Below the pieces are notes generated by a model, which ran no database searches, was not told the DNA's origin, and was given only the letters and a program-made list of their open reading frames with translations. A program made the position numbers and the translations under genes. A stretch of 64,000 bases of DNA from a virus: IMG/VR virus record IMGVR_UViG_3300032249_000925, positions 1-64,000 of that record. One strand, given 5' to 3'. Below, in pieces: positions 1-51,724 of the stretch. The number at the start of each line of letters is the position of its first letter. Positions within the stretch are counted from its first letter, which is position 1.

Positions 1-1064
1 CCACCAGTAAAATCAATACCTGTATAACCAAAAACAGGTCCTGCAAAAGTAATATTTTCATTACTATTAGTAATACTAATAGCACTGCTTGAGTCTATTA
101 GTAGCGGAATAGTTATTTGATCAACTAATGTTTGATTAACAGTATTATTTATTTTACCAGTTACTTCACATTTATATGTGTTTGTAACCGTTGTACTATT
201 ATAGTCAGTATTAGCTACTGTATAACTACTAGCAGTAGCACCACTAATTAGATCAAAAGTACCTGTACTATTAGTTTGTTTATACCACTTATATGTAGGA
301 CCTACTATATTTTGAGCAGTAGTAGTTAATATAATATTTGTAGGAGTTATAGTAGTATCTACAGCTCTTTTAAATGTAACAGCACTATTATCTATACTAA
401 AAAATGCTGCGCTATAACCTTGCGTACTTTTACTTACCATTAGTGTTCTTTCAACAGTAAGTGTTGCCCAAGAATTTGTATAACTAGCGGTAAAAGTAAC
501 ACTACCAGTATCGCTAGTTAAACCAGTAACCGCATATATACCAGTAGCACTATTTATAGTTACAACTATACCACCAGTTTGACTACCAGATTTTATACCA
601 TAAGTTGGACCCTTACCAGTAATATCTTCGCTAAAACTATACATTTTAAACACGCCGGTAGCATTAGTAAAATCGGGATTAACCCCTAATACTTCACTTG
701 GCACATTAATAGGATCATTAGTTAAAAAACCATAAATACTGGTATTTTCATCATATACTGTTCCTGAATATTCTCTGGAATAGGTATAAGTTGTAAGATC
801 AATATTTGATATGTAAGCATATCTTACATAATAAGTTTTAAAAATATCTAAGTTAGGTATAATTATCGAGGCAGTAACTGGCCCATTATATACTAAATTA
901 GTAGAATCATTAGGAGTAAATCCAAGAGTAGTACTGCACCAAACTTTAATACCTATAAGATCAGATCTTGGTGTAGTATTATTCCAATCGGTGGGGGTAC
1001 CTACTTTTAGTATTAAACTTCTAAATCCACTTATTAACAAAGCAGTTGTTGGACTTCCTGCCAT
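1..1064 (-). CDS. Tail fibre/tail-tip accessory protein, Ser/Thr-rich beta-sandwich (runs off the left window edge)
   Basis: ATG at 1064 abuts the stop of the upstream gene; open frame MAGSPTTALLISGFRSLILKVG...; Ig-like YKWYK...YKCEVTG segment; follows the central tail protein. Confidence 0.7.
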   Translation of the reverse strand, partial: MAGSPTTALLISGFRSLILKVGTPTDWNNTTPRSDLIGIKVWCSTTLGFTPNDSTNLVYNGPVTASIIIPNLDIFKTYYVRYAYISNIDLTTYTYSREYSGTVYDENTSIYGFLTNDPINVPSEVLGVNPDFTNATGVFKMYSFSEDITGKGPTYGIKSGSQTGGIVVTINSATGIYAVTGLTSDTGSVTFTASYTNSWATLTVERTLMVSKSTQGYSAAFFSIDNSAVTFKRAVDTTITPTNIILTTTAQNIVGPTYKWYKQTNSTGTFDLISGATASSYTVANTDYNSTTVTNTYKCEVTGKINNTVNQTLVDQITIPLLIDSSSAISITNSNENITFAGPVFGYTGIDFTG

Positions 1065-4000
1065 TTATTCTTCTCCTGTATCTATACCACTTAGTGGCTC
1101 TTCAAAAATTGTTTTTAGTATAAAGCTACTAAGAATACTAGTATTACTTACATTATTATTATTGTCTACTGTTCTACAAGCTACTCTATACTGTACACCT
1201 ACATCAGAAAGTCTTGGCGTAGGAAAACTTAATAAATCTATTCTACCTACTCCACGACTTTCAATAGACTTAATAAGAGTTGGATTTACAATATCCCAAA
1301 AATCCCCTGTACCGGCATTTTTATATACTCTATATTCATAAGTTTTAAAATTAGGAGTATTATTAGTAGTAAAATTTTGAGGAGTAATTACTAAGTAGTG
1401 ACTTTCTAATGTAACTACTATATTAGGGGTGTTTAAAGTATTAATAACTTTTCCTTCAACTGTTCCAAATTTTGTATCGGACCAAGGTCCACAAATTGTA
1501 CCCTCTGCATTTGTATACCTAACTCTAAATTTATATCCACTAAGACTTTTTAATCCGTTAACCCGAAAACCGCCTTCTGATTTATCTACAGTAATTAAAT
1601 TTAAACTGCTATCTGAAAAATCAGAATTACTATCTATTAATTGTAGCTGTATTTTTTGAATAATAGATACTGTGGTATTATCACCATTACTAATTGCAAT
1701 TAATAATGTATTGGTATATACTCCACTTGAAATTTCGTCAGCTATTCTACTATCGCTTGTAACACTAATAACTACTGGTATTGTTGTAATTGTTTGTAAA
1801 GTTACAGGATTATTTGTTATGGTTATGTTTGGATTAAATACTGCGTTAGTAAAACCTTCACTATAAATATCTGGTGAGTAGTCAACTAATGTTAATTTAG
1901 CACTAGTATTATTAGTAGGCTCTACTGCAAGCACTATTAATTCCTGTGACTCTGTACCTTTACCACCTACAAGCTCACCTAGCATAAATAAATTATCTGT
2001 TTCAATACTAGTAGGTAGTGTTCCAGATACTAAAACACTTGTATAATAATCAGAAGTAGTAACAGCTAATAGGTTATACGTAAGAGAAGCATTACTATTT
2101 GTTCTAATTCTAATTATATAACTTTTAGCAGTTTCTAAATATAATTCTTCTGTTAATACAATAGTAGTATTTGTAGTTCCTGCTACTATTGATTTAATTC
2201 TACCAGTACCAGTACCCCATAGTGGTACATCGTGTGAAACTCTAACTAAATCACCACGAGTACACACTAAGTATTCAAAGTCTACATTAATTGTATATAT
2301 TTCAGGACGTAGTTTAAGTTGTGCATAATGCCATTTAGCTAAGTACTCTGCTTGAGCTTGATTAGTTACACCAGGTAGTGGTAATTCTTCATAGATTTTA
2401 GCAGTTGCAGCAGTTTTTGTTGAATTATAAACTAATAATTCATACGGCTGATATGCCTGAGTTTCGTTATTAATTGTAACTCTAAATGCATCAGGAAGTT
2501 TTGCTAATATTTTTGTAGATTCAAATCCCCAACTATTGTGTGGAGTAAAATGTTGTGTAACAACAGTTCTTGGTTTATCTACTACTACAGTCCATTTACC
2601 ATTTACCATACTAGGACTAGCTAAACCTGCTGCACAAATTTCTCGCAGTACATCCATAACACTTCTAACATTAGTTAGAACATTATTATAGGTTAAATTT
2701 TTAGTTTTACAAAAAGTATGCCAGGTTTGTAGCGCTGGCAAGTCTATATATGTGTTAACATCACTTTGAGCAATAGCGTACATATTAGCAGGATGTGTTA
2801 ATACATGCCTAAATAAACTAGCAGGATTGTTAATTTGTTGATCTGCTAACCATGCGCTACCTGTCCAGTCATATCCAAGTGTGCATACTAAGGCATTTAC
2901 TCCATCAACATTACCATTTACTCTATTAGTACTTTGCAATCTAATAGCAGTTTTTGCTAAACGGCAATCTTTTGGATTAACAGTAGGCGGGTTATTTGCA
3001 TTACTATATCCTGTAACAGTATATAAGTAAACTTTATTGTATTGAATCCAATCAGTTTCTTTATCGTCATTGCTGTCATCTAATCTACGTACTCTAACAT
3101 CGTAGTAGTCTAGTGGAAGATTTTCTATAGTATAACTAGTATTAAAAGCATTTTTACGATTTTGAAAAACGTCGTTGCCCCACTCAAGAGTAAGAGCAGT
3201 AGCTGGAATAGTATTAACAGATTTTGAGCCAATAATTCTAAAAACAACACTTGCTATTCCATCTGCAGAACTTGTGAAATTTGATGCTGTTATAGTTACA
3301 CTACTTGTACCCTTATTAAGGTATATTGTTTCACTAAATTCATTATAATAATTAAACTCACCACTAATTATATCCATTAAAGTTTTTCCATCTATAGATA
3401 TACTACCTTTAAAGGTTGTGCTAAAATATACTGTATGAATTCCTGATTCAGGAACAGTAAAATTTTGAGTATGAGTCCAATCTTGTAGGAGTGTTCCACT
3501 AGAATTAGTAACTGTGATTCCTGTAACAGTAAAACTATCGTCCCTACGATCATACGTAGTAGTTGAAGGTACTATATTTTGACCAGGATTAGCAACTAAT
3601 CCTCCAGGTGTATCACTACTTAAAAGAACAGTCTTTGTATTTGAGTAGGTACTACTTGTTCCTGTTAAATTACCCGTACTTATACTAAGAGTATAATTAG
3701 TAGCGCGAACATTTTTAACAAGTGCTTTTGTAGAACTTGGACGATTATCAAAAAGTATGCCTGAACTACCACCAGTTATTGTTAAATTTAATCCAGAATA
3801 AAGTGTTGGTCTTCTATCGTCTACTTCTTCTATTCCTACATAGCTTTGAATACAGATTCTGTATAAAGTTTCAAAACCTTGAGGTATTATAGGTAGTAGG
3901 GCATAATTGCTATTAAAATATGTTGCGCTGTTTAACGCATCAACTACAGTGCTGCTTGGAGGATTAAATTTATTTTCTGTTGGTGTTCCTTCAAAAACTC

Positions 4001-5549
4001 CAATAACATTACCAGTACCTATTGCAACTATATACCATTTAAACAAAGGTGTACCATCTATATCCGGTTCTAGTATTGTAGTATTAGTTGTAGCAGGTAC
4101 ACTATATCCATTAGTTACCCAAGTAGAACTGCTGGTTGCTTTATACTGTATTTCAACTTTAGCACTACTATTAGCTGAATTGCCGTCTTTTTTATTTATT
4201 TTACGTAAACCGCCAGGAAAGCTAAATGCTAATTCAATTTTTTCACACTTATCGGTAAGTGATACAGTTGTCCATGTAGTAACGGTGCCGCCAGGGTTAT
4301 CTAGTTCGCGTTGTTGTACAGATTGTGTTACATCACGACCATACATATTATTTAGTAAAGTTTCGTCTTCGCCAGGAAAACCATATACTGTAGTAGGTAA
4401 TTGTTGATTTACGTTTATACCACTACTTGTAGTACTATTAGCATAATATTCACTAATAGGTATTAAACCTACTTGATATTCACTAATAGCAAGTGGACCA
4501 AATCCCCAAGTTAGTAATAAATTAATAATACTAGTATCTTCTTTGCTTTCAATATATGGTTGAGCAGCTAACATTGCTGCCATTCGTACTCTACCTAATA
4601 CTACAGGTATTGATCCAAATCTGTTAGCTTGATTACTACTGCCGTTAAATAAACTTAATGACGTGCCTGACCCAGGATCATTAAGTTTAGGTTGTGTAAT
4701 TGGAGCAATTGCATTTATTAACAATGCTCCAGCAACTTGTACACCTGCTGTAATTACTGCGGTAGCTGTAGCTACCGCAGCTGCAGTAGGAGGTCCGCCG
4801 CCAGCAATCATTGATGCTGCAAGCTGACCACCATATGCTTGACCAAGTTGAACTGCAATATAAATAATTGCAATTGCTACAACTACACGAACAACATCTT
4901 TGCCAGCTACTATCCTATAGTTTATGACTTGACCTTTACTAACTGTAGTAGTTGTCCACAGGTCTCTAGGCACAGGAACACCATCTATAGTAATAACCAC
5001 TCTTTCCATTAGTCTGGTAGTAATATTATACTTTTTACTAATATATTCAACAATGTTTTGAATAGTGCTGCCAGGTATTTGCCATTCAGTCGATACTAGC
5101 TGTGTTTGTAGTGGATGTGGAGCACCAGTTAACTGCACAGATTTTTCTACATATCTGTAAGTACCTTCCAGTCTTCGATTCCATTTATAGCTATCTAGGG
5201 ATTCAATAACACTGTATTCGCCTTCGCGTATGTGTAAAAATTTTTGCTCGCCAATATAAATACCTACATGTACAGGTTCGCCTAAAATATTAAATACGCA
5301 AACATCTCCTAATTTAGGATCTGTTACTTGTTCCCAAGATTCTTTAAGCAAGGCATCTTTGGTTTGTGCAACTAAATCAATAATAGTAGAATTGTCTGGA
5401 TCGGTTCCCACATACTCTGTTGCAAGACTAGGTAATTGAATACCTAGTTCTTCACAATATACAAGTACAACTAAGCCCCAGCAATCTAGGCCTGATATAG
5501 TTCTACCATTAGCTAAATAGGGTAATCCAACGTATTTATTATGCCACAT
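1065..5549 (-). CDS. Central tail/host-specificity protein: NlpC/P60 (lambda gpK-like) + gpI-like + gpJ-like fusion
   Basis: N-terminal GLDCWGLV...HVGIY NlpC/P60 motifs; FGSIPVVLGR and NPASLFRHVL gpJ-like motifs; FN3-like YKFRVRY near the C-terminus. Confidence 0.8.
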   Translation of the reverse strand: MWHNKYVGLPYLANGRTISGLDCWGLVVLVYCEELGIQLPSLATEYVGTDPDNSTIIDLVAQTKDALLKESWEQVTDPKLGDVCVFNILGEPVHVGIYIGEQKFLHIREGEYSVIESLDSYKWNRRLEGTYRYVEKSVQLTGAPHPLQTQLVSTEWQIPGSTIQNIVEYISKKYNITTRLMERVVITIDGVPVPRDLWTTTTVSKGQVINYRIVAGKDVVRVVVAIAIIYIAVQLGQAYGGQLAASMIAGGGPPTAAAVATATAVITAGVQVAGALLINAIAPITQPKLNDPGSGTSLSLFNGSSNQANRFGSIPVVLGRVRMAAMLAAQPYIESKEDTSIINLLLTWGFGPLAISEYQVGLIPISEYYANSTTSSGINVNQQLPTTVYGFPGEDETLLNNMYGRDVTQSVQQRELDNPGGTVTTWTTVSLTDKCEKIELAFSFPGGLRKINKKDGNSANSSAKVEIQYKATSSSTWVTNGYSVPATTNTTILEPDIDGTPLFKWYIVAIGTGNVIGVFEGTPTENKFNPPSSTVVDALNSATYFNSNYALLPIIPQGFETLYRICIQSYVGIEEVDDRRPTLYSGLNLTITGGSSGILFDNRPSSTKALVKNVRATNYTLSISTGNLTGTSSTYSNTKTVLLSSDTPGGLVANPGQNIVPSTTTYDRRDDSFTVTGITVTNSSGTLLQDWTHTQNFTVPESGIHTVYFSTTFKGSISIDGKTLMDIISGEFNYYNEFSETIYLNKGTSSVTITASNFTSSADGIASVVFRIIGSKSVNTIPATALTLEWGNDVFQNRKNAFNTSYTIENLPLDYYDVRVRRLDDSNDDKETDWIQYNKVYLYTVTGYSNANNPPTVNPKDCRLAKTAIRLQSTNRVNGNVDGVNALVCTLGYDWTGSAWLADQQINNPASLFRHVLTHPANMYAIAQSDVNTYIDLPALQTWHTFCKTKNLTYNNVLTNVRSVMDVLREICAAGLASPSMVNGKWTVVVDKPRTVVTQHFTPHNSWGFESTKILAKLPDAFRVTINNETQAYQPYELLVYNSTKTAATAKIYEELPLPGVTNQAQAEYLAKWHYAQLKLRPEIYTINVDFEYLVCTRGDLVRVSHDVPLWGTGTGRIKSIVAGTTNTTIVLTEELYLETAKSYIIRIRTNSNASLTYNLLAVTTSDYYTSVLVSGTLPTSIETDNLFMLGELVGGKGTESQELIVLAVEPTNNTSAKLTLVDYSPDIYSEGFTNAVFNPNITITNNPVTLQTITTIPVVISVTSDSRIADEISSGVYTNTLLIAISNGDNTTVSIIQKIQLQLIDSNSDFSDSSLNLITVDKSEGGFRVNGLKSLSGYKFRVRYTNAEGTICGPWSDTKFGTVEGKVINTLNTPNIVVTLESHYLVITPQNFTTNNTPNFKTYEYRVYKNAGTGDFWDIVNPTLIKSIESRGVGRIDLLSFPTPRLSDVGVQYRVACRTVDNNNNVSNTSILSSFILKTIFEEPLSGIDTGEE

Positions 5550-6076
5550 TAAAATAATCCTGGAAAATATCTTGGAGTAAATCCATAAGCTGGAAAAGGT
5601 TCAGTATTGTAATTAATCATGCCCAGCTGAATTTGAATACTATCACTATTATATGTTGCGCTAGTAATGTAGAACCCTGGAAAACTAGCTTCTACTACAC
5701 TTGGGGTACTACTTAATACTAGTTCTATTAATATTTTTGTAGGTTCAGTTAAGTCACTGCGAATAATTTCAATAGCTTCTGGGGTAACAAAGTTAAATCT
5801 AATACTGCAACCACTAGTGCCGTCTTGAGCTTCGCTAGGCAATAAAACTTCCATAGGTAAAAATAAGTATTCGGCGCTGCCAGGGCCTATAACGCCGTAT
5901 ACTTTTTCTGCGTCTGTGGTTAAACTACTGATTTCTTGTGTAAAAGTATCACATAATCTTAATAAGGGTGTAGTGCCACCAGCAGGATTATAAATAGTTA
6001 CTAAGGTAATTAACGTTTCTTCTGTTTCTGAAGAATACATTGCTTTAATAGCATTTGAACTTAATACTCTGCTCAT
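5549..6076 (-). CDS. Tail tip protein (DUF1833/gpL-like)
   Basis: C-terminal EPFPAYGFTPRYFPGLF typical of DUF1833; lies between Dit and NlpC/P60. Confidence 0.7.
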   Translation of the reverse strand: MSRVLSSNAIKAMYSSETEETLITLVTIYNPAGGTTPLLRLCDTFTQEISSLTTDAEKVYGVIGPGSAEYLFLPMEVLLPSEAQDGTSGCSIRFNFVTPEAIEIIRSDLTEPTKILIELVLSSTPSVVEASFPGFYITSATYNSDSIQIQLGMINYNTEPFPAYGFTPRYFPGLF

Positions 6077-6441
6077 GGTAATACTTCTAAAACTAAGTCA
6101 ATGTTCCAAAAACCTGGCGCTAAGTAAGTTAATTTGTAAAACTCACTTTCACTTTGTGGCACAATGCGTACCTCTACATAAGTATTAGTACGCGGATGCA
6201 TAAACTTAAATCTAAAAACACCTTTAATAGTATCCTTAATAAAGGTGTTTATATGATCTACTTGTTTAGTAGTTAGTATAAAACTAACATCCATAGTATT
6301 AACACGTGCGCCACGACGCCGTTGTTTAGCAGGGCCTTTATCCATTGGCGAACGCAAAACATTAATACCAACAGATTCAGTAAAACCTTTTTGAGGATAC
6401 TGTGGAAAATTATCAGCAGTAGGCCAATTAGGTACAGCCAT
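6073..6441 (-). CDS. Distal tail protein (gpM/Dit-like)
   Basis: RSPMDKGPAKQRRR and F.F.HP motifs; directly downstream of the tape measure gene. Confidence 0.7.
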   Translation of the reverse strand: MAVPNWPTADNFPQYPQKGFTESVGINVLRSPMDKGPAKQRRRGARVNTMDVSFILTTKQVDHINTFIKDTIKGVFRFKFMHPRTNTYVEVRIVPQSESEFYKLTYLAPGFWNIDLVLEVLP

Positions 6442-6442
6442 A

Positions 6443-9400
6443 TTATCTCCTTGAAATTGCGGGTTTTGTGCCGTATGTAGCAGCTAAGGTTTGTTGTACA
6501 GAACTGCCTTTAGTGGCTAATTGTTGTGCGACCATATCGCCTACTGTTACCTCAATAGTACGATTACCGCGACTGTCTACATTTTCACGTGTTTGTGCTT
6601 GCTGTCCGCTATGGTTATTGACTATTACATTAACATTGCTGCCACTAGGTTCTGCACGAACACCTAGGTTACCATTTTGATCCCGCTTTAGGGGCATAAT
6701 AGCTTCAGGTCCTGCTTCGCCCATTAAGCCTATACCTTTTGCAAATTTAAACATTGTAGGTTGATTTACTATACTATTAGTAAACATACCGCCTTTGGCA
6801 AATTCATGAACTGGATAACCTTCGTCAAATGCGCCGCCTGCGGCAAATTTATTGCCGTAACCATCAAAAGCTGCTCCTTTAGCTGCTCGGCTATAAGTAT
6901 TCATACCGTATGTACCGCTAGAACCGGTAATAGTAGCTTCTGGACCACCAATAAAACTAGATACAAAAGCAGATCCTAAAGTAGATAAAAGATTACCTCC
7001 TCCACCAGATCTTACACCTTGATACATTGCTAAAGTTGCCTGCTTTACTTCCCAGCGTAAAATATCCATTAACATTGAGTCAATTAAACTCTTAAAGTCT
7101 AGCTTACCTGTTTTTACAAAGTTAGCAATTGCGTCACCTAGTGAGTCAAAGCCTCTTTCTAGCGCACCTAAGTAAGCTTCTGTTCTTGCACTGTATTGAT
7201 AGGTAGATTGAGTAATCTCGTCAGTACTATCTTTTGATCTCTTAGCTAGTCTTATTCTTGCTTCACCTTCAGTAGTAAAGCGTTTAACTCTTTCAGCACT
7301 TTGAGCATTTTCAGCAGCATCAGGTTTAGTGCCAGTAATTTCACGATAAGTATTAAGCTGACTTTTAAGTGTAGCTAATTTAGCTTGTGCATCAGCTAAT
7401 TCTTGGCCTTCTAATCCAGCTATGCTGTAGTTAAGAGTTTCTATTTGAGAAGTTAAATTAGTTTGTGTTTCTAGATTATCAGTCACAGCAATAACTGTAA
7501 CTAATCTTTCTTCTAGCCTTTGTTTGTCTTCTTTTAAGCGCAACATTGCTTGAGGATCTGCAGTTTTACTGTTTAAGGTATCTTGTATACTATTAAGTTC
7601 TGTTTGAAGCGCTGCTTGTTCTTCTAGTAAAGCTTTTTTCTTTCTATCAGGATCTAATACTATCTTACGTTTTTCTTGTGTGTCAGTTTCTTCTTTTACT
7701 TTTTTAGCAATTTCTTCTTGTATGGATTTAATTTGAGTTCTGTACCTAAGATCAGTTTCTGCAAATTGTTGTGATTTTTCAAAATCACGAACTTGTTGCT
7801 GACTTACTAATCCTTGATCTTGTAACACTTTAAATTTATTTCGGTTAAACTGTAGTGTTTCGCTTTCTAACTCTAAGCCTATGCTGCCTAGGGTATTTCT
7901 ATATTCTATTTTTGCATTTTCTTGTGCTGCTCTATTTGTAACTTCTTCTTGTGCTTGACGAATTTTTAATAAATATTTTTCTTGTAGTTGATTTTTATCA
8001 ATTATTTCTTTATTGATTAGTAATTCTTGTTTTCGTTTAATTAAACTAGCTTCTAAATCTTTATCTTTTGCTTTTGCAGCTTGTTGAATTGCAAATTCTT
8101 GATTTGAAATCTCTTGACTAAGTTTGCGTTGTTCGCGATTTAGTGCAACTTCTAAAGTTAATGTATCGTATCTTTGTTTTTCCGCTAATGTAGTTTTATC
8201 TAGATAATTTAAACCTTGTATGCTTAATGCAAGTTGATCCGCTTGTAAGCTTATCATTCTTTCTCTTAATGCTATAGTAGCTTCTTCTGTAGCAGCTAGT
8301 CTTTCACGTTTAGTTAGTTCTTTTTCAATAGGCTCTAGTATATCTTTTTGAGCTTTAGTTAGTTCTGCTAATGCTAATTTTGAATTTCTGGTGGCTAGAG
8401 CAGTAGCTTTTTGAGCATCTAATACTGAATTTGATACTTGTGCTTGTTGTTGCATTTGTTGAGTATCTTCTTGTAAATTAGTATTTTGAACAGTTTCAAA
8501 TGTTATACTCTGTGTATTTGATGCAGCTTTAGTAAGTGCAAATTCTTGTTCTTTTTCAGCCACAGCAACTACTTTTTTACGTTCAATTAATTCTTTTTGA
8601 ACAGCCGCAATAGTAGCATTTTGAGCTTGAGTTAATTCTACTTGTGCTGATTTTGAGTCTTCAATAGTTGCATTGATAGCATTTTTACCTTGTAATATTT
8701 GTGATTGTAGCTTTGTTTCTTGAATAACTGTAGGCTCAGGTTCTTTTTTAACTACACGTTTATTAGACTCATTTGCCTGTCTTTTAAATTTAGCAGTTTC
8801 TCTATCGGCATCTAAATCTGGATCTTTAAAAGCTATTTTATTAAGCTCACCTATTGCTTTAAATTGAGTAGCCATTTTTTCTAGCTTTTCATTAATGCCA
8901 CTAATAACATCTGAATACTCTTTATTAGCAGCGGCAATAGTTTTAGTATAATCAAGTTCGTTTTGTTTTTCTCTGTTTAAGCTTTCTTGATTTGTAAGAT
9001 ATTCTGCATCTAGCATATTTCTCTTACTAAAAAATGATAGTAAGTTACTATTTAAATTAATTCTTGCTTGCTCTTTTTCAAAAGCTGCTGTTTGTAATTT
9101 ATAATTGTTATTTAGTAATTCACGTTGTTCAAAATATTTATTAGTTATATTTTTAAGTGATTGATTAGTACCTACAAGTATTGTGTCTTCTTGTTGTCTT
9201 AGTTTAATTGCAGCTTGTTGTTTTTCAAGTTTTTCAACTTCTTTTTTTGCACTAACACCTTTGGCGACACTAATCTTATTTTCAATATCTAAGTCTTCTA
9301 TTTTTCGCTCTTTTGATTTGATTTCTTGCTCTGTTTGATTAATAGATTGTTGTGTTCGTTGGGTAGTATAGCCTAGAATACTACTTTCTATACTCGCTAT

Positions 9401-12400
9401 TTTTTGTTTTGTGTCTAAAACATCTTTGTCTAATTTTAATTGTTTACTTAAATCTTCTACTCTGCCGGCAGCTTGAGCAATATTACCACGAATTCCTTCT
9501 GCAGTAAAAGCTCCTTGTAATTGTATTCTATTTGCTTCTTGTGCTGCTACTCTTTGCTGTGCAGCTAAGGTTCTTGCATCTGCTCTAGCCTTTTCATCTT
9601 CGCTAAGTTGTTGAACTTCTGTTTTAGCAGGAACTAATAGTCTGCCGCCTTCTCGTTGTTCATTTGTAACTGTTATTGTAACTTTTTCAGGTGCACTAAC
9701 AATAGTTGATTTGTTTTTGCTAGCGTCTTTAGGTTCGCTGGCTTTAAGTTCGCTAACTTTAGATTCGCTGGCTTTAAGTTCGCTAACTTTAGGTTCGCTG
9801 GCTTTAGCTTTAGGTTGTGAAATGTTATCTAAAGTATCTCTAACCGCTTGAGCTATTCTAACTTCTGATCGTGCTGCATCACGTTCTGCTTGAGTACTGT
9901 CTTTTTTCTGTTCAACAATTAATGCTTGTGTTTTTGCACTGCTTAAATCAATGCTAGCTTTTAAACGTTCCTGACTTAAAATGAGTTGTATATTGGTATC
10001 AATAGCCCTCATCTGAATTTTAATTTCTTGCTGATTAAGTCCAGTTTCTTTTTTTGCACGCTCTTCACCACTTAGTGCACCTAGAGTGGCTTTGCCAATA
10101 GTAATAGCTGCCCTTTCACTGGCATTACCTAGAGCTTGATCAATTAATCTAGAACCTTCTGCAAATGCTGATTTTAAACCTTCTGTAAAAATACTTTTGG
10201 CTTGTTCTACTTTATCTCTAGGCAATAGCTCTAAATTTTGTTGTAATTTTTGTTTTGTACTTTGATTTTTTTCTAGTTCACCTTCAATTTCTCCAAGTCG
10301 TCTACTACGCTGAGGATTAAATCCTGGGCTACTTTTTTGTTGCTGTTTTAGTTCTAATTTTTCAGTATTTAAAGACTCTGCTGCTTTATCTAAATCTCTA
10401 ATACCTCGTTCTACACTATTAATGGCTGTTACTTGTTCTAAAAAACCCTCTTTAATATCTAAAAGTTTATTAGTAAAGTTTTCGCCAAAAAATATTCCTT
10501 TTTCAGGTGATTTTGCTAAATCAATCATGGCCGCAGTAGCCATATCAATACCATCTGTTTTAAAATCCATTATGGTTTGAGCATTTAACTGAATAGCTTT
10601 AGCTAAGCTAAATAGCGGATCTGTGTTAGCCGTACCTTGAATAAAGATTTCATATGCTTTAGTTACACCTTCACTGGTAGTCTTAAAAGCCTCAAGTTTA
10701 CTACTAGCATTACCTATATTTGCAGTTAATTTTTCTAAGGCTTCTTTGCCAAGTTCTTGACCTGATTCTGTTTTAAATAATTTTTCTAGGCTGCTTTTTG
10801 ATAGTGAATCAATGCCTAATTTTGCTTTTAATTCAATTTCTGCTTTATCGCTTGTGCTTACTCTTTTAAATAATTCTAAGGCTTTTAAGGTTTCTTCAGT
10901 TAATTTTTTTGCTAGTTTAGTACTTGCATCTTGACCTATAAACCCAGCAATAAAATCAATTGGTTTATCCCAATAAAAGTTCATTTTTTCTCTGGATTCT
11001 TTAGCAGTATCTACTAGCGTATTAAAGCTATCTTTTAGCTCTGTTATAGCATTTGAAGTTGCCTTAATTCCAGCACTAGTACTACTAAATATTGCAGGTT
11101 GTTTATTAATATAGTCTATTGTACGTGTAGCACTATTAATAACTTCATCTGCATTTTCTAAAGCATCAGTAAAAGCTTGAGCTTGTTTTGTATTGCTACT
11201 AAGAATTGGATCTAATACAGCAAAAGCTATTCCAATACCAGCTACCCAACCAATTATAGGTGATACAAAAGCTTCAAATAGTATACCTGCTTCAGTTACA
11301 AAGCTTATTATTCTTGCTAAAGTTTTAGTAACGAAACCATCAACTTTGCCTAAACTTTTACCTGCTGCTGCAACTGCCGCATCTGCTGCTTCTACAGCGG
11401 CACCTATGCCCTCTTTTTGCGTTTTTCCAGAAACCTGTGATAAAATATCTAGTTTTGTAGCCTTGCTACCTGCTTTTTCACTAAGTTTTTCTCTAGCGGT
11501 AGCACCTATATTAGTTTTTTCAATTGTTTCTATACTTTGTTGTTCTGCAGCCTTTAATTGTTCAACTTTTTTAATACGTAATTCTTCTTGTTTAATTAGA
11601 TTACTTAATATTACTTCTTCTTTTTCTAGTAGTAACATTCTGTCACGTTCTGCTTTAGTTATAGCCTGTGCACGTTTAGGATCTTTTGCTATATCGTCTA
11701 AAGCAATATACTCTCTGGTAATTCTATTTAAATCTTGTTTTGCTTTTTTAAGTTGCTCATCGCCTAAAGCTTGGTCAGGCTGTTTAGTAACTGCGGTATA
11801 AGTAGTAGTTCTAGTACGTTTACTAGTTTGTGAAAATTCTTCTCTGGCTTTTTGTGTTATTTTTTCTTGTAGTTCTAGTTCTTGTTTAAGAGCATCTACA
11901 TTAGAGCTTTTGTTAACACGAGACACTAAACTTTCACTAAATAGTGTATTAATATCTGCTGCTGCAGCTTTGGCTTTAGCTGCAGAATCTACTAAACCTT
12001 TTTGCCAGTCACCTAATGCAGGTAATGCCATACCAGTTAATTTTGCACCTATACCTACAATAGCTGCTGTAAGTAAGGTACTATTATTAGCAAATAGATT
12101 AGCAAAAGGAACAATAAACTTATTAGTAATTTCTAAAAAAGTTTGACCTAAATTTTTAAGTGAAGCTTCTAATTCTTTATAAGGATTTGCTGGCAGATTA
12201 ATATCGCCAAATTTATCTGAACCTTCTTTTAAAACAGCATTAGCAAATGCTTGGCGTCTTTCAAAATCAGTTAGTTGACTAGCAGCTTTACCTATTTTAC
12301 GAGCATATTCATCAGTAGCTGGACCAATTTTAGTAAATAAACCTAGTTCGTCTAGTAATTCAGGCTCTAGTTTAGTAATACCGCGACTTAATCTGCTTAG

Positions 12401-30944: not shown

Positions 30945-31004
30945 TTCACACTTGATTAACCCATCCCAACCCTGTATAATATTAACTTAACTGGAGAAAA
31001 CGCA

Positions 31005-31331
31005 ATGGCTGAAAAAACTGTAAACTATACCCCTGAGCAAACCCTGAATCTGATTGCTGATTACAAAAACGGATTTACCGTTGAGGAATTGGCTTTGCAA
31101 TTCGGCAAATCGGTTCGCTCAATTGTTGCTAAACTCTCGCGTGAGGGCGTTTACGAAAAGAAAACCTATAAAACAAAAACCGGCGAAGCAGTTGTTAAAA
31201 AAGACGCGCACGCTGATGCAATTGGTGCAATTCTCCGATTGCCAGAAAATGACATTGAATCCTTGACCAAGGCTAATAAATCGGCATTAAAAGCCATTTT
31301 TGACGCATTGGCTAATTCAAAACCCATTTAA
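31005..31331 (+). CDS. T5 A2-like DNA-binding protein, copy 2
   Basis: Near-identical C-terminal half to 26594..26920; own TTGATT-17-TATAAT promoter and GGAG RBS. Confidence 0.75.
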   Translation: MAEKTVNYTPEQTLNLIADYKNGFTVEELALQFGKSVRSIVAKLSREGVYEKKTYKTKTGEAVVKKDAHADAIGAILRLPENDIESLTKANKSALKAIFDALANSKPI

Positions 31332-31341
31332 TCGGGTATTT

Positions 31342-31369
31342 AATAAAACCGGCAATTGCCGGTTTTATT
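31342..31369. terminator. Bidirectional terminator
   Basis: Perfect palindrome aataaaaccggcaattgccggttttatt. Confidence 0.8.
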
Positions 31370-31376
31370 TTATCTA

Positions 31377-31545
31377 TATCGTTTTAAAATTTATAACGAT
31401 CGCGGCGCCGATTATACTTGTATAATCGGGGACGTGTCAAGAGGTTTTGCAAAAATACAACATAGGGACTTACCCTAATAGTCGTCTTAAATTTTGGAAC
31501 GATGTGGCGCCAAAATTATACCATAATTTTGGCGGACGTGTCAAG
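31377..31545 (-). repeat. Leftward promoter-hairpin elements, copies 6 and 7
   Basis: TTGACA-18-TATAAT with palindromes CCGATTATAC/GTATAATCGG and CGCCAAAATTAT/ATAATTTTGGCG; GGCGCC follows. Confidence 0.75.
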
Positions 31546-31549
31546 GGCT

Positions 31550-31820
31550 GGTGCAAAAATACAACATAGGGACAAACCCTAATAGGGTAAACCCTGAGGG
31601 CAAAATTTGCCGTTGTTTTTTTACCACACTGCACTTTTTGCCGTTGTTTTTTTACCACGGTAAAATATACCTGCTAAATTTTGCTACGATTGTGCACCGC
31701 AGCAAAAGGGCAAAATGCCCCTGCGCCAGTGCAAAAACTAGTGCAAATTCTTGTGGGTGCCCGGCGCCAGTGGCGAGTCAAGTGCAAATTCTTGAGGGTT
31801 ACAAGTGCAAAAACTTGCAG
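31550..31820. repeat. Noncoding repeat cluster (injection-stop-signal-like candidate)
   Basis: 22-bp direct repeat tttgccgttgtttttttaccac at 31606 and 31637; agtgcaaa x4; agtgcaaattcttg x2; gcgccagtg x2; TAGGG..CCCT inverted repeats. Confidence 0.6.
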
Positions 31821-31976
31821 TTGAATGTGTGGGTCAATCACTGTATAATAATATCTTAGACAGTTAGGAACCGATACAAACTTAGCCAGACCCTAGTAAT
31901 TTTGATCTTGATATCGACAACTGAACAGCGTATAATAGAATCTTCAACAGCGCAGAAACCAAAACACAAAGGACAT

Positions 31977-32288
31977 ATGATGACTGACAAAACTGTAAAC
32001 TACACCCCAGAGCAGACCGCTACCGTTATCGGACTTTACACCACAGGCAGCTCTGTGGAGATAATCGCCGAGCAGATGGGCAAAAGCGTGCGGTCGATTG
32101 TGGCAAAACTCTCCCGTGAGGGAGTGTACATCCCTAAGACCGCGGCTAAGGGTCAGGGCCGAGTTACTAAGGCCGACCTGATCGGTCGCCTTGCCAACAA
32201 GTTTGAGATTGATGCCACCGAAATCTCCAGCCTTGAAAAGGCTGGCATGGGTGCTCTAGAGCTCCTGGTGCAAAAAGCCGGGGCATGA
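31977..32288 (+). CDS. T5 A2-like DNA-binding protein, copy 3
   Basis: KTVNYTPEQT...KSVRSIVAKLSREGVY...SSLEKA; AAGGA RBS. Confidence 0.7.
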   Translation: MMTDKTVNYTPEQTATVIGLYTTGSSVEIIAEQMGKSVRSIVAKLSREGVYIPKTAAKGQGRVTKADLIGRLANKFEIDATEISSLEKAGMGALELLVQKAGA

Positions 32289-32313
32289 CATACCGGGGAG
32301 AAGAAATTTAATC

Positions 32314-32342
32314 TTGATTCTTCTCCCCAAACCCTGTATAAT
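32314..32342 (+). promoter_or_regulatory. sigma70 promoter of the large ncRNA candidate
   Basis: TTGATT-17bp-TATAAT; -35 overlapped by inverted repeat ggggagaagaa/ttcttctcccc. Confidence 0.75.
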
Positions 32343-32348
32343 ATTATT

Positions 32349-32923
32349 ATAGACAGTTAGGAAAGCGCGAGTCAACGACTAAGGCGCAGATACCAGTAAA
32401 CGTACCACTACCCCGCCTAGAAGCCAATGTATAGCTAGCAATTTGTAGTGCCAAGTACAAGTACTGACGACTGTTTTATCTCAATGGGTGACAGCGGCGC
32501 AGATTTGCTGCAGCGTCTTAATTGTGGAGAACTTATGTTAAGGCCGAGCCACAGCCCTGAGCAAAGAATTAAAATCCTGGACTGCTAAGACTCGCTATCT
32601 AAGGGAGGTCAGGTGGTTGTAAATACCTAAACTTACCAAGTTGTCTAGAACTTGTAAATAATTTAGACGGTATCCAAGCAACCTCAATCTGGTGTGCAAC
32701 TAGAGCAGTACTGTCCAGCGGTTAGGCCCGCTGGTTAAAATATAGGCCCAGGGTCAATGACGCAGTGTGCTAGTGCTTGCGCTAGTTGCTCTGCTAGACC
32801 CAACGCGGAATGACAGGCTACCGTAGCAAAGCGCTTTGCGAAAACCATGTCGGACCAGCATTAAAAACTGTTTACAGTTCAAAACCCCGCAAGGCGACGG
32901 CCTTAGCGGGGTTTTGTTTTTTT
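32349..32923 (+). ncRNA. Large structured noncoding RNA candidate (~575 nt)
   Basis: Bounded by a promoter and a terminator; no ORF of 60 aa or more; 5'/3' closing helix and several long-range complementary segments. Confidence 0.65.
32881..32923 (+). terminator. Intrinsic terminator
   Basis: aaaaccccgcaagg-cgacgg-ccttagcggggtttt followed by a T-tract. Confidence 0.85.
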
Positions 32924-32945
32924 GCTCAGCTTTTCATTTTTTAAG

Positions 32946-33011
32946 GTAGTCTGTTTTTGGAGGCAGACTACGGCGCCAATATTATACAGTGCAAAACCTA
33001 TTTGTGTCAAG
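32946..33011 (-). repeat. Leftward promoter-hairpin element, copy 8
   Basis: TTGACA-18-TATAAT, GGCGCC, hairpin GTAGTCTG/CAGACTAC. Confidence 0.7.
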
Positions 33012-33105
33012 TAAAAATTTTTTGTCTGACCCTAAAGCGTGGCAAATCGTCACCCAACAAAAAGCCCCAAGCAACTTTCGCTGTATGGGGCGCTTTAGGG
33101 TCAGA

Positions 33106-33429
33106 TTACGCTTTTTGGCAGTTATTTTCACTTAAACGGGTTTCTAGGACTTGTAGGATGCCTTTATTGACCTTTTCTAGACTTTCTAGGAGTTCGGGAT
33201 CCATTTTAAGCAGTTTAGCGATGTTTTCTATGTGTTCTGCCTTTTTGGTAGGTACTTCACCGCGTTTGTTTAAGTAGGTTTTCTTTTGGTAAACACCTAA
33301 ACTGCTGAGCTTGGCAATAATGCTGCGCTCCGGCACCTCGAGCTCCTGCGCGATTTTTTGGACGTGAATGCCAGTTTTGTACTGTTCAACCAGACGGTCA
33401 GTAATTTCTTTAGTATATTTCAAGTACAT
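33106..33429 (-). CDS. A2-like HTH protein, copy 4 (divergent)
   Basis: RSIIAKLSSLGVYQKKTY...KKAEH...LESLEKVNK. Confidence 0.7.
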   Translation of the reverse strand: MYLKYTKEITDRLVEQYKTGIHVQKIAQELEVPERSIIAKLSSLGVYQKKTYLNKRGEVPTKKAEHIENIAKLLKMDPELLESLEKVNKGILQVLETRLSENNCQKA

Positions 33430-33435
33430 CTCCTA

Positions 33436-34227
33436 TTAATCTTCCCAAGGCAATTTAAGCTTACCCTGGGGCATTTTAACATTAGTTTTTTCTGTGGACC
33501 CTAAAGCGTCAAAGACTTCGCCAGTTACCAGTGGCTTGGGCATCACATCCCAATTTTGTGGGTCTAGGATCATCAACTCAGTTCTAAGGCTAGGATGTGC
33601 AACCCAGATTTGGCACATAACGGTGCTCAACAATACCGGAGCTCCAGCAAATTGTGTGGCCGCCAAGCCATGCAGCTTCCATTGACTAGTAGGTTTGTTT
33701 TGCTCACCAGCTTTAGGTCCGGTTCTGGCGGTTAAGCCAAAATTTCGGATCTGGATTAGCTCTTCTGACCCTAAACCTAAACAATCTCCCCGATACTGCA
33801 TAACTTCCAACAATTCCTTATGCACTAAGCTGTCCAACCCTTCAAGCTCCCAACAATGATAGGGAATTCCTTGGTGTCGTTTCATGCCTGCTAGGACTAG
33901 TGGGACCAATTGGCTATAATTTCTACCCCACTCCGAACTCTGCGTTTTGACTAGGGCTCCACGCTTTAACTGAGTACAAACTCTCCACAAGCCTAAGTCC
34001 CAGTTGCTGGTAATGTTTTTGCGTGCTGTAGCTCGGGGGTCTAGGCGATTGTCGTCAAGTGGGACTGCCTGCCAGGTTCCAAAGTAGGCGCAAATTTGGG
34101 GCAGCATCCACAGCCCGTAAAGTTGGAGTTGGTGCTCTTCAGCTTGCTTTAGCAAATCTTCTTGATTTAAGTTGTAATAAGCGTCAAAAGGTATTAGCTT
34201 AATGTCATTTGATTTTAATTTTAGCAT
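33436..34227 (-). CDS. T5 D2-like protein
   Basis: YSQLVPLVL, QIWVAHPSLR, PLVTGEVF, LPW C-terminus resemble T5 D2. Confidence 0.7.
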   Translation of the reverse strand: MLKLKSNDIKLIPFDAYYNLNQEDLLKQAEEHQLQLYGLWMLPQICAYFGTWQAVPLDDNRLDPRATARKNITSNWDLGLWRVCTQLKRGALVKTQSSEWGRNYSQLVPLVLAGMKRHQGIPYHCWELEGLDSLVHKELLEVMQYRGDCLGLGSEELIQIRNFGLTARTGPKAGEQNKPTSQWKLHGLAATQFAGAPVLLSTVMCQIWVAHPSLRTELMILDPQNWDVMPKPLVTGEVFDALGSTEKTNVKMPQGKLKLPWED

Positions 34228-34259
34228 ATATTATAAGAAACAATTTGCCTTAGTTGTAG

Positions 34260-34397
34260 GAAATTTTTTAACTGTGTAAACTGCGAAAACTTGCACATTA
34301 CAAAAGCTGAATTTTATTAACGCTCTCCCCGTGGGGCTCAGGCGAGAGCTATAAAATTTGCTTTTTTATGTTTTCTAGTTTACTTGTAAAAAATTTC
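34260..34397. other. 138-nt imperfect hairpin in the D2 leader
   Basis: Nested complementary arms gaaatttttt/aaaaaatttc, gtaaact/agtttac, gaaaac/gttttc, aaaagc/gctttt, aattttat/ataaaatt, gctctc/gagagc. Confidence 0.7.
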
Positions 34398-34467
34398 TTT
34401 GTTTACATCTCACTAGATTTAACAATATTATAGCATAGATTTTGTTATTAGTAAAGGTGTATTTTTA

Positions 34468-34767
34468 TCAATGCTCCTCATTTTGATATGAGCTAATATG
34501 GCTGTCGAAATATTCTGGGAAATCTAAGTCAATGTTGTTGCCGTGGTCGTGTTCGTAGATCCAGTTTAAGGTATACTCAAATAGTTCTGGGCCTAGTAGT
34601 TGTTCGACCAGATCATCATATGCCCTATGCACAGGGCCGTAGTAGTTGACCTCGTTGTCTTGGTCTAAGAGCTTAAATGCCCTAGTAAGTTCTTGGTCTA
34701 CTAGTTGCGCTTGCTTGACAGTTTCGACGTATTGTTTGGCAACTTGAAATTTAGTAAGTTTACTCAT
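34468..34767 (-). CDS. Hypothetical protein
   Basis: ORF in a tightly packed minus-strand early cluster. Confidence 0.6.
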   Translation of the reverse strand: MSKLTKFQVAKQYVETVKQAQLVDQELTRAFKLLDQDNEVNYYGPVHRAYDDLVEQLLGPELFEYTLNWIYEHDHGNNIDLDFPEYFDSHISSYQNEEH

Positions 34768-48865: not shown

Positions 48866-49081
48866 ATGCAAAAACCAAACCGCTTTGATTTTGAGCAACA
48901 AATGATGGATTGCTGGGGTGTAGTAGATGACATTAAAACCATCTACTATCTCCAAGACTTGCGAGATAGTACAGAAGACGAAATGCAGAATTTACTGCTA
49001 GGTTTGTTTACAATGTATCAGGTCAAGTTTGAAATTTTGCAAAAAATGTTTGAGGACTTGGTTCACAGCAAACAGTTGTAA
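48866..49081 (+). CDS. Conserved phage hypothetical protein
   Basis: RFDFEQQMMDCWGVVDDI. Confidence 0.65.
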   Translation: MQKPNRFDFEQQMMDCWGVVDDIKTIYYLQDLRDSTEDEMQNLLLGLFTMYQVKFEILQKMFEDLVHSKQL

Positions 49082-49151
49082 ACGGGTAGCTACTTGGCAA
49101 TACTGTCAAGTAGCACCATACCAAAGCCTAGTTTATCTGGGCTTTGGTATG

Positions 49152-49450
49152 GTTGTATGAAACAAGCCGAAAGGCGCGCTGGACGTGGGTTCGACTCCCA
49201 CCTGGTCCACCAAAAGCACATATAGTTGTCCTAGATGAAAGAAACCTCTGAGGGCTCTAGCGGGGATTATTGTGTGCTTCTGATGGGCCAGTCATGGTTT
49301 CGACAGTGTGATAAGTATGCAAGTGGACAACTCGGTAGGCGATCTCCGCAAAAGAAGCAAACTATATAAATGCCAACGATGAGGTATTTGCTCTAGCCGC
49401 TTAAGCTAGTGCCGAGGTATGCCCCCGCCTTGTAACCAAGGGGGGCTTTT
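49152..49450 (+). ncRNA. ssrA: Circularly permuted (two-piece) tmRNA, tag ANDEVFALAA
   Basis: T-arm and acceptor 3' strand ...GGTTCGACTCC...CTGGTCCACCA (ends 49212) precede the 5' strand GGGCCAG..TTCGAC (49285), giving a G3:U70 pair; ATAAAT-GCC resume site; tag ORF 49372-49404. Confidence 0.9.
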
Positions 49451-49465
49451 TATCGGATAAATCTT

Positions 49466-50098
49466 ATGGCTAACAAAAAACTTGATAGTGATGATTTTAT
49501 GCTGGACACAGGTCTTAGCCGAGGATTTCGTAAATCTGGTTCTGCTATCTACGAGTTCTACCTAAGTGGAACTATTACAGGACCTGAAGACTATATTGAG
49601 TGGTTTAACACTATTCGTAGTGCAGGACCACAAGACGAAGTAAAAATTTATATTAACAGCAGCGGCGGCGATTTAAATTGTGCACTACAATTTATGCGTG
49701 TACTTAGTGAAACACAGGCCACTGTTATTTGTAGTGTTGAAGGCAGTTGCATGAGTGCTGCTACAATGATCTTTTTATGTGCTGATGTATTTGAGGTTAC
49801 TCCACACAGTTTATTTATGTTTCATAACTACAGCGGCGGCATTTTTGGCAAAGGCGGCGAGATCTATGATCAAGCTGTTTTTGAACGTGAGTGGTCTAAG
49901 CAGTTTTTACAGCATATTTACAAAAATTTCTTAACCAGCAAAGAAATTGATAGTTTACTAGAAAACAAAGACTTGTGGCTACACAGCGAAGAAGTAAGTA
50001 ATCGTGTAGAAAAATTGTGTGAAGCTAGAACTAAGGAACAAGAAGATGCTCGTAACGCCCTGTCAGGGGATTTGCAAGATGAATCCAACAACGAATAA
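49466..50098 (+). CDS. clpP: ClpP-like protease
   Basis: IYINSSGG, CMSAATMIF, FMFHN, DLWL. Confidence 0.85.
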   Translation: MANKKLDSDDFMLDTGLSRGFRKSGSAIYEFYLSGTITGPEDYIEWFNTIRSAGPQDEVKIYINSSGGDLNCALQFMRVLSETQATVICSVEGSCMSAATMIFLCADVFEVTPHSLFMFHNYSGGIFGKGGEIYDQAVFEREWSKQFLQHIYKNFLTSKEIDSLLENKDLWLHSEEVSNRVEKLCEARTKEQEDARNALSGDLQDESNNE

Positions 50099-51405: not shown

Positions 51406-51482
<77 letters not shown>

Positions 51483-51486
51483 GAAA

Positions 51487-51562
51487 CTGCCCATAGCTCA
51501 GTGGATAGAGCAACAGCCTTCTAAGCTGTTGGTCGAAGGTTCGATTCCTTCTGGGCAGGCCA
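51487..51562 (+). tRNA. tRNA-Arg(TCT)
   Basis: Loop CTTCTAA; encoded CCA. Confidence 0.95.
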
Positions 51563-51568
51563 AACAAT

Positions 51569-51643
51569 TCCTTAGTAGCTCAGCGGTAGAGCAGCAGACT
51601 GTTAATCTGTTGGTCCGTGGTTCGATCCCACGCTGGGGAGCCA
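51569..51643 (+). tRNA. tRNA-Asn(GTT)
   Basis: Loop CTGTTAA; encoded CCA. Confidence 0.95.
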
Positions 51644-51650
51644 AATTTAT

Positions 51651-51724
51651 GCCGGTGTAGTATAATGGCAGTGCGGCGGTCTCCAAAACCGCTAGTGGTG
51701 GTTCGATTCCATCCACCGGTGCCA
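51651..51724 (+). tRNA. tRNA-Trp(CCA)
   Basis: Loop CTCCAAA; encoded CCA. Confidence 0.9.

Follow-up and report, generated by a model that had tools for sequence, protein, structure and literature searches.

A modular structured RNA gene of an uncultured freshwater T5-like phage belongs to a family absent from Rfam 15

The stretch from position 32314 to 32923 of the 64-kb window analysed here is a structured non-coding RNA gene of ~570 nt, encoded on the plus strand of an uncultured freshwater T5-like phage. The RNA is a member of an uncatalogued, modular RNA family of such phages, a class that is absent from Rfam 15. It is a chain of modules, comprising a 130-nt 5′ domain, a junction of ~70 nt, a third module and a clade-specific 3′ domain, rather than one fold closed end to end. 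Within its family it is a reduced member in which two units are fused and which has neither a hammerhead ribozyme nor a tRNA. The window covers the first 64 kb of an IMG/VR virus record of 99,362 bp (IMGVR_UViG_3300032249_000925) that has terminal repeats, the repeat having been collapsed in the assembly. The large terminase shares 49% identity with the enzymes of ~115-kb T5-like vibriophages and is also matched by hundreds of Salmonella and Escherichia T5-like phages, and head, tail, polymerase and helicase are encoded by genes of the usual types. A first-pass annotation, made from the sequence alone, had proposed at this locus a ROOL-sized RNA, possibly of a new class, with its own promoter and terminator. 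The new class was borne out, whereas the single ROOL-like fold gave way to concatenated modules that relatives transcribe and process separately.

Relatives of the RNA and its secondary structure

The 128-aa protein encoded upstream was used as a lead and yielded nine related viral contigs. In four of the nine the non-coding stretch has a full-length counterpart, a homologue of 81-91% identity, and the more distant contigs share only a core of ~70 nt. A pattern derived from this core retrieved 48 stretches in IMG/VR, and a relaxed pattern retrieved 88 in metagenome contigs, giving 136 viral and metagenome loci of uncultured freshwater T5-like phages. The runs and records are labelled as lake, freshwater or wastewater, with a few contigs labelled 'marine metagenome'. 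Fourteen sequences, referred to below as the window's clade, share the whole RNA including its 3′ half. Long invariant blocks persist within the clade at an overall identity of 80-90%, which is similar to that of the flanking genes.

A model of 81 base pairs was tested on the alignment of the 14 clade sequences, with partners slid by 1-3 columns and 500 shuffles as controls. Standard pairs were formed in 99.1% of the cells. Compensatory changes were observed in 13 of the 81 pairs (39 cells), compared to 0-2 such pairs for the slid partners, and none of the 500 shuffles reached the observed values. The one-sided changes were nearly all to or from G-U (G-C or A-U to G-U). Since these would be A.C mismatches on the other strand, the plus-strand RNA is the selected molecule.

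The 5′ domain (32350-32478) is closed by a helix at 32352-32358/32469-32475, within which helices are nested at 32394-32397/32463-32466, 32402-32405/32455-32458 and 32406-32411/32445-32450. Helices 1-4 of this domain are 100% paired and include three compensatory pairs. Downstream of the junction, which is described below, a linker hairpin (32576-32613; stem 32576-32580/32609-32613) is 100% paired with covarying inner pairs. The third conserved module (M2-like, 32614-32685) has a helix at 32623-32627/32669-32673 around a long hairpin at 32633-32657, each with one compensatory pair. The clade-specific 3′ domain (32686-32862) contains an invariant block at 32692-32714, a hairpin at 32715-32734 with three compensatory pairs, a second invariant run at 32738-32747, a helix at 32751-32755/32797-32801 and a distal part at 32803-32862. 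A small hairpin (32866-32879), in which CG changes to GC in four sequences, precedes the terminator. The 3′ domain is restricted to the window's clade. The idea that its block might occur elsewhere as a free-standing module was dropped, as the IMG/VR matches were four clade contigs only.

Seven pairings had been picked out by eye in the first-pass annotation, and they fared differently. CACTAC(32406)/GTAGTG(32445) is kept in 14 of 14 sequences and never varies, and CCAGCGG/CCGCTGG (32715-32734) is strongly supported by the three compensatory pairs of that hairpin. GTCTAG(32643)/TTAGAC(32663), at 32643-32648/32663-32668, is 98% paired with one compensatory pair, but it involves the loop of the better supported hairpin 32633-32657. 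The pairing of GCAACTAG with CTAGTTGC (32696-32703/32782-32789) is kept in 10 of the 14 sequences, but it is absent in four and does not covary, and its proposed inner extension is contradicted by A.C mismatches in four of those ten. GGGTC(32751)/GACCC(32797) is also kept in 10 of 14, absent in four and without covariation; both of these pairings are present only where the 3′ domain is kept. GGGTC/GACCC had been suggested to cross other helices as a pseudoknot; in the consensus fold of the nine closest sequences it is instead a nested helix that encloses local hairpins. The RNA does contain a real pseudoknot, elsewhere than proposed, at 32495-32497/32544-32546. Two long-range pairings were refuted. 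GCGAGTC(32367)/GACTCGC(32589) has its two central pairs broken in 9 of 14 sequences. The supposed closing helix 32351/32866 loses its outer four pairs; the partner of its 5′ strand is 32469-32475, and its 3′ strand folds locally into the covarying hairpin 32866-32879. Long-range pairs offered by RNAalifold (the 5′ strand of the junction with 32616-32627, 32470-32475 with 32664-32669, and 32387-32392 with the distal 3′ part) were rejected as well, as they never covary and clash with junction pairs that covary family-wide, and as the pairing of the junction with 32616-32627 is impossible in distant relatives.

Transcription unit and coding potential

The non-coding stretch is bounded by the stop codon of a small plus-strand gene (32288) and by a block of minus-strand genes (from 33106). 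Its G+C content (0.485 in 32001-33000) is higher than elsewhere in the window (~0.31-0.44), as had been noted at first reading. A sigma-70-type promoter with a -35 box at 32314-32319 and a -10 box at 32337-32342 predicts a start near 32349; it matches 10 of 12 consensus positions and is invariant in five homologues. At the other end lies an intrinsic terminator (32881-32923) with a stem at 32881-32890/32906-32915 and a U run, 100% paired and with one compensatory pair. A simple terminator scanner missed this stem, which has a loop of more than 8 nt and was found by folding. The terminator is likely bidirectional because it is flanked by an A run. The proposal that the unit has a promoter and a terminator of its own therefore held, and a host-type RNA polymerase would transcribe the RNA from the consensus-like promoter and end at the intrinsic terminator.

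No open reading frame (ORF) of 60 aa or more is present on either strand of 32289-32956, as originally claimed; the largest is 46 aa and none is conserved. The variable columns are spread evenly over codon positions (16/14/13), showing no periodicity, and most indels are not multiples of three, with 137 of 206 internal gap runs having a length of 1 mod 3. These observations bear on the explanation that small conserved peptides account for the conservation. Most clade members do have two open frames, one of 25 aa over the junction and one of 34 aa on the minus strand (32595-32699). However, both are broken by stops or frameshifts in several members, and the length of the junction hairpin varies by non-multiples of three across the family. 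Together with the absence of codon periodicity and the gap lengths, this leaves the peptide explanation with hardly any credibility.

RNA-library contigs covering the locus

Six RNA runs hold part of the sequence, and contigs of four lake or freshwater metatranscriptomes (three studies) were placed on 31000-34500. Contigs from these four that are 85-99% like the window span 32384-32859. In run X16 a single 464-nt contig covers 32388-32853 at a depth of 661, compared to 2.7-7.7 for the flanking genes. Several contigs lie on the RNA in each of the other three runs, at depths of 120-281 in X17 (flanking genes 3-15), 16-67 in X15 (6-7) and 14-33 in X18 (2-5); the depth of contigs is no basis for ranking genes, and RNA libraries may contain contaminating DNA. 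Runs X17 and X18 each have one contig that extends from the upstream gene into the 5′ domain, so read-through or a shared abundant message is possible. Uncovered bins and a 'skip' of 32563-32610 in two runs were left uninterpreted. The contig data give moderate support for an RNA that accumulates, short of proof.

The pseudoknotted junction

The part of the RNA that recurs in all 136 loci is the junction at 32486-32557. It consists of a closing helix (32486-32489/32554-32557), a 3-bp helix (32490-32492/32515-32517) around a variable hairpin, and a 5-bp helix (32523-32527/32549-32553) with an inner hairpin (32532-32542) in its loop. Three further base pairs, 32495-32497/32544-32546, cross the other helices and therefore form a pseudoknot. 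The hairpin at 32498-32513 differs in sequence and length among loci, always folds and covaries, and the inner hairpin of the 5-bp helix is an optional mini-hairpin across the family. Among 89 distinct junction sequences, the 15 pairs were formed in 100% of 1335 cells, and 0 of 500 shuffles scored as high. Only four cells deviate and all are compensatory, with the pseudoknot changing from G-C to A-U in L093, L112 and L120 and one change in the 5-bp helix of L060. The pseudoknot columns had been left unfixed in the pattern scan of metagenomes. The junction also holds conserved, invariant unpaired runs framed by helices, which gives it the look of a specific binding pocket or active site.

Five clade members (L027 at 2550-2620, L125, L148, L111 and L147) carry an insertion of ~60-70 nt directly after the junction, in alignment columns 233-300, which the window does not have. 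The inserted sequence contains a hairpin together with a ~15-nt unit that is present two or three times in tandem.

Modules of the distant relatives

In most loci of the distant relatives the 5′ domain is a separate unit ('RNA-1') with its own promoter and a terminal helix followed by a U tract. Profile matches to the 5′ domain, from promoter to junction, were obtained in ~25 distant loci; the closing helix is kept, with A-U changed to C-G in some. Directly after the RNA-1 unit lies a second consensus promoter, from which a second transcript would start a few bases before the junction. The window's clade does not have this second promoter, and the two units are fused. Downstream of the junction the relatives have a module resembling 32614-32685, a canonical hammerhead core and a variable 3′ part of 480-740 nt with many mutually complementary short motifs. 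Judged by this resemblance, the third module of the window RNA and the module after the junction in the relatives appear to be homologous.

Type I hammerhead ribozymes are known from phages (Rfam clan CL00010; Perreault et al. 2011, PMC3088659), and distant family members resemble them in having the canonical core and three helices (I, II and III) with clear covariation; the GUC triplet is present in 27 of 30 strict cases. Helix III of the relatives' hammerhead has an insertion of 50-70 nt, which is why Rfam models give it only 16 bits, the score of the partial hammerhead in L024. Many relatives also carry a tRNA-Glu(UUC) at varying junctions between modules, and two (L107 and L127) carry a tRNA-Tyr. 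The sequences thus suggest that the second RNA of the relatives self-cleaves by a type I hammerhead and often carries tRNA-Glu. In contrast, neither the hammerhead core (CUGAUGA ... GAAA) nor a tRNA is present in any of the 14 clade sequences, that is, in the window RNA and its 13 closest relatives. An apparent hammerhead relic at 32688-32696 was discarded, as the resemblance is found in the window's own sequence and not in the clade. Relatives without a tRNA likewise retain the junction and the 5′ domain.

A 9-nt motif and its reverse complement occur in many copies in the 3′ parts of distant relatives, downstream of the hammerhead (for example in L024, L020, L041 and L033). The same motif forms helix III of the hammerhead, and the window has it in the arms of the hairpin at the end of the minus-strand genes (33027-33100). 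It may be a DNA operator as well.

The layout of the relatives raises two further explanations. The junction could be a new self-cleaving ribozyme that cuts at its own 5′ edge, which would free the 5′ domain in the window's clade and, in the relatives, remove the few leader bases and leave a 5′-OH end. Its compact, invariant, pseudoknotted core with conserved unpaired runs would suit a ribozyme, as would its position exactly at the start of the second transcript in the relatives and at the fusion point of the units here, and the family already employs a hammerhead. However, the junction matches no known ribozyme class, a binding site would predict equal invariance, and RNA-library contigs cross 32480-32486 in three runs, although partial cleavage is compatible with such contigs. 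We therefore regard self-cleavage by the junction as improbable. A similarly small chance attaches to the locus being the decaying remnant of a tRNA-Glu/hammerhead processing cassette, transcribed but without function. The absence of the tRNA, the hammerhead and the second promoter from the window's clade is consistent with decay, as is the phage having no tRNA-Glu anywhere in its genome, where five tRNAs only (Ser, Met, Arg, Asn and Trp) were found; the 3′ domain is moreover variable and partly deleted in some members. But the compensatory changes inside the clade show ongoing selection for structure, the long invariant blocks persist at an identity like that of the flanking genes, and the retention of the junction and the 5′ domain in tRNA-less relatives also speaks against a remnant.

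Comparison with known RNA classes

ROOL and GOLLD gave no hit at the gathering score in the window, and within 32345-32880 no Rfam 15 covariance model matched even at E<=10. The models covered RNase P, tmRNA, 6S RNA, group I and II introns, twister, pistol, hatchet and HDV-like ribozymes and riboswitches. The only permissive matches at the locus (32200-33100, E<=10) were terminator look-alikes at 32845-32968. Kinship with ROOL or GOLLD, which the first-pass annotation had brought up, found no backing, there being no covariance-model match to either at E<=10 and none in a scan of 15 relatives. In these 15 relatives and a compact relative, Rfam scans at gathering and permissive thresholds gave only terminator look-alikes and the partial hammerhead of L024. 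Among cultured phages, neither blastn and megablast of the locus and of the 10 kb around it nor tblastn of the upstream 128-aa protein gave a match. A search of 185,579 species genomes of bacteria and archaea returned one match, L151 (CAZDRR010000094.1), a 2.9-kb contig binned in a metagenome-assembled genome (MAG) of Candidatus Saccharibacteria, which is most likely a phage fragment mis-binned into a bacterial MAG. No description of the RNA family was found in the literature.

GOLLD and ROOL are large phage RNAs of unknown function in which tRNA genes are sometimes embedded between parts; GOLLD has a 3′ region that is conserved universally and a 5′ region that is conserved less, and ROOL is encoded in phages and prophages, often beside tRNA islands (PMC12286853). 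Like GOLLD (RF01998), the RNA described here is a large, phage-encoded structured RNA with one universally conserved and one variable part, and its relatives have a tRNA gene, tRNA-Glu, between parts. Unlike GOLLD, it has the reverse polarity, the 5′ domain and the junction (136 loci) being conserved and the 3′ half matching only within the clade; it also has no nearby tRNA, the nearest in the genome (44279 and 51406-51724) being at least 11 kb away. It is similar to ROOL (RF03087) in length (~570 versus 580-660 nt), in coming from a phage, in having multiple helices and a pseudoknot, and in being abundant in RNA data. It differs from ROOL in not lying beside a tRNA island, in being built of modules that relatives transcribe and cleave separately, and in its location between A2-like genes in the early or pre-early region. 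To judge from sequence and models, the RNA resembles the large ornate phage RNAs yet belongs to neither GOLLD nor ROOL.

This resemblance also raises the explanation that the RNA is an RNA-only, self-assembling homo-oligomer, a cage or ring like ROOL, GOLLD and OLE, with modules joined by loop-loop contacts. Size, phage origin, the lack of a known function and the tRNAs between modules of relatives all parallel GOLLD and ROOL (PMC12286853). Invariant palindromic hexamers lie in apical regions at 32434-32439 and 32644-32649, and CTAG occurs 7 times compared to 2.2 expected from composition. However, the palindrome at 32644 is broken in L072/L078, CTAG is frequent across the whole window too, and this enrichment is too weak to carry weight. 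Neither sequence nor models connect the RNA with ROOL or GOLLD, and processing by hammerhead and at tRNAs cuts the RNA of relatives, which fits separable modules better than one cage protomer. An oligomer is accordingly unlikely.

Genomic setting

The RNA gene is single-copy, as determined by a genome-wide search for the junction. It occupies the same genomic slot in 20 of 20 loci with enough flanking sequence. In all 20, two small paralogous genes lie upstream on the same strand, and a third paralogue and the gene of a 263-aa protein converge from downstream. The small flanking paralogues match phrog_1725 weakly (E 1e-5 to 7e-7), a profile that T5 A2 itself matches at 4e-52; pairwise BLAST of these genes against T5 A2 gave no match, so the earlier description of the flanking genes as A2-like holds at the profile level only. 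On this profile evidence, the RNA family appears to be always positioned between small A2-like, putatively DNA-binding genes.

Such a position recalls the ~1-kb non-coding iss (injection stop signal) region that T5 has after its plus-strand pre-early genes, and the element could be thought to act as DNA, for example as a signal that stops injection in the manner of iss, as an origin or as an array of operators, with its hairpins forming cruciforms. The likeness is that of a non-coding stretch after a block of pre-early-type genes of a T5-like phage. In contrast to iss, which is described as a DNA signal, the window element has a promoter and a terminator that frame it precisely and covariation of the RNA type, with G-U-tolerant, strand-specific pair changes. 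It is covered by RNA-library contigs, and the pseudoknot, like the hammerhead in relatives, makes sense only as RNA. It also has no similarity to iss; no profile, motif or Rfam match to the window RNA was found in the T5 first-step-transfer region that includes iss (T5 1-12000). A DNA element is thus very unlikely, and the locus is better described as an RNA gene.

Other features surround the gene. After the upstream A2-like gene comes a palindromic hairpin (32295-32328, plus strand) whose two arms are kept in relatives and whose 3′ arm shares sequence with the -35 box of the RNA promoter. The -10 box and first transcribed bases of the RNA (32337-32357) are duplicated at 31844-31864, at the first promoter of the neighbouring A2-like gene. 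That gene has tandem promoters at 31821-31849 and 31908-31936, and its likely start codon is at 31977, not 31902. On the minus strand, the convergent promoter announced at first reading is present at 33010-32981 as a perfect consensus (12 of 12 positions). It is followed, in 33010-32878, by GGCGCC and a hairpin at 32944-32969, reaching the terminator of the RNA from the other side; it would yield an RNA of its own of ~95 nt. The minus-strand promoter and GGCGCC are also kept downstream of the RNA in distant relatives. Conserved at 32-89% identity, the 263-aa protein (33436-34227, minus strand) is encoded next to the RNA in each of the 20 related contexts. Searches of Pfam, PHROG, PDB sequences and the Atlas returned no match for it, and its mostly helical AlphaFold2 model (pLDDT 78.6) had no fold match, the best scores being E 1.3 with Foldseek and Z 3.9 with VIA-align.

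The phage also encodes a tmRNA (49080-49495), which matches the betaproteobacterial and permuted tmRNA models of Rfam and for which ARAGORN gives the tag ANDEVFALAA. The match to the betaproteobacterial model is a possible clue to the host.

Proposed role and significance

Taken together, a structured non-coding RNA gene of an uncatalogued modular family is on balance the best explanation of the locus. No gene lies downstream on the strand of the RNA, and its conserved parts are kept with or without a tRNA or ribozyme, which argues for an RNA that acts in trans and against a leader or a tRNA precursor. The RNA would act early in infection as a stable and abundant molecule. Its invariant junction would be the place where a protein of phage or host, or a small ligand, docks specifically, and the docking may help in taking over the host or in countering its defences; the variable 3′ parts would act as accessory cargo or as a scaffold. 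By analogy, we tentatively suggest that a stable early RNA binds a protein or ligand through the junction for one of these purposes, a possibility that we hold well below the existence of the RNA gene itself.

Several points weigh against this explanation. The folding energy of the single sequence is ordinary (z -1.8 on the plus strand and -2.3 on the minus strand), and the case therefore rests on the comparison with relatives. Much of the invariance of the junction is a matter of ascertainment, as the search pattern fixed 28 of its bases. Some clade members can dispense with the 3′ domain, which is partly replaced or deleted in L054, L072/L078, L111 and L147. The RNA evidence consists of assembled contigs only and is no proof of transcription, ends, strand, level or cleavage. 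No partner of the RNA has been identified, the conserved 263-aa neighbour could be assigned to no family or fold, and the functional part of the explanation draws on analogy only.

A bolder version, which we consider doubtful, is that the junction is a functional RNA element of a new kind, whether a class of self-cleaving ribozyme or a receptor that binds a host or phage factor with high affinity. It would be central to an abundant early RNA with which an entire lineage of freshwater T5-like phages takes over the host or disarms a defence, and the hammerhead, tRNA-Glu and variable 3′ domains would be interchangeable cargo.

For the window, the modular model replaces the single end-to-end fold first envisaged. 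For the field, large structured phage RNAs such as GOLLD and ROOL are abundant and none has a known function; the present family is an independent case with an unusually clear anatomy. Its position among the earliest genes of T5-like phages is fixed, and it contains natural 'experiments' in the form of fused and split transcription and of members with and without the hammerhead and tRNA-Glu. A tiny invariant pseudoknotted core and separable modules make the function of such RNAs approachable.

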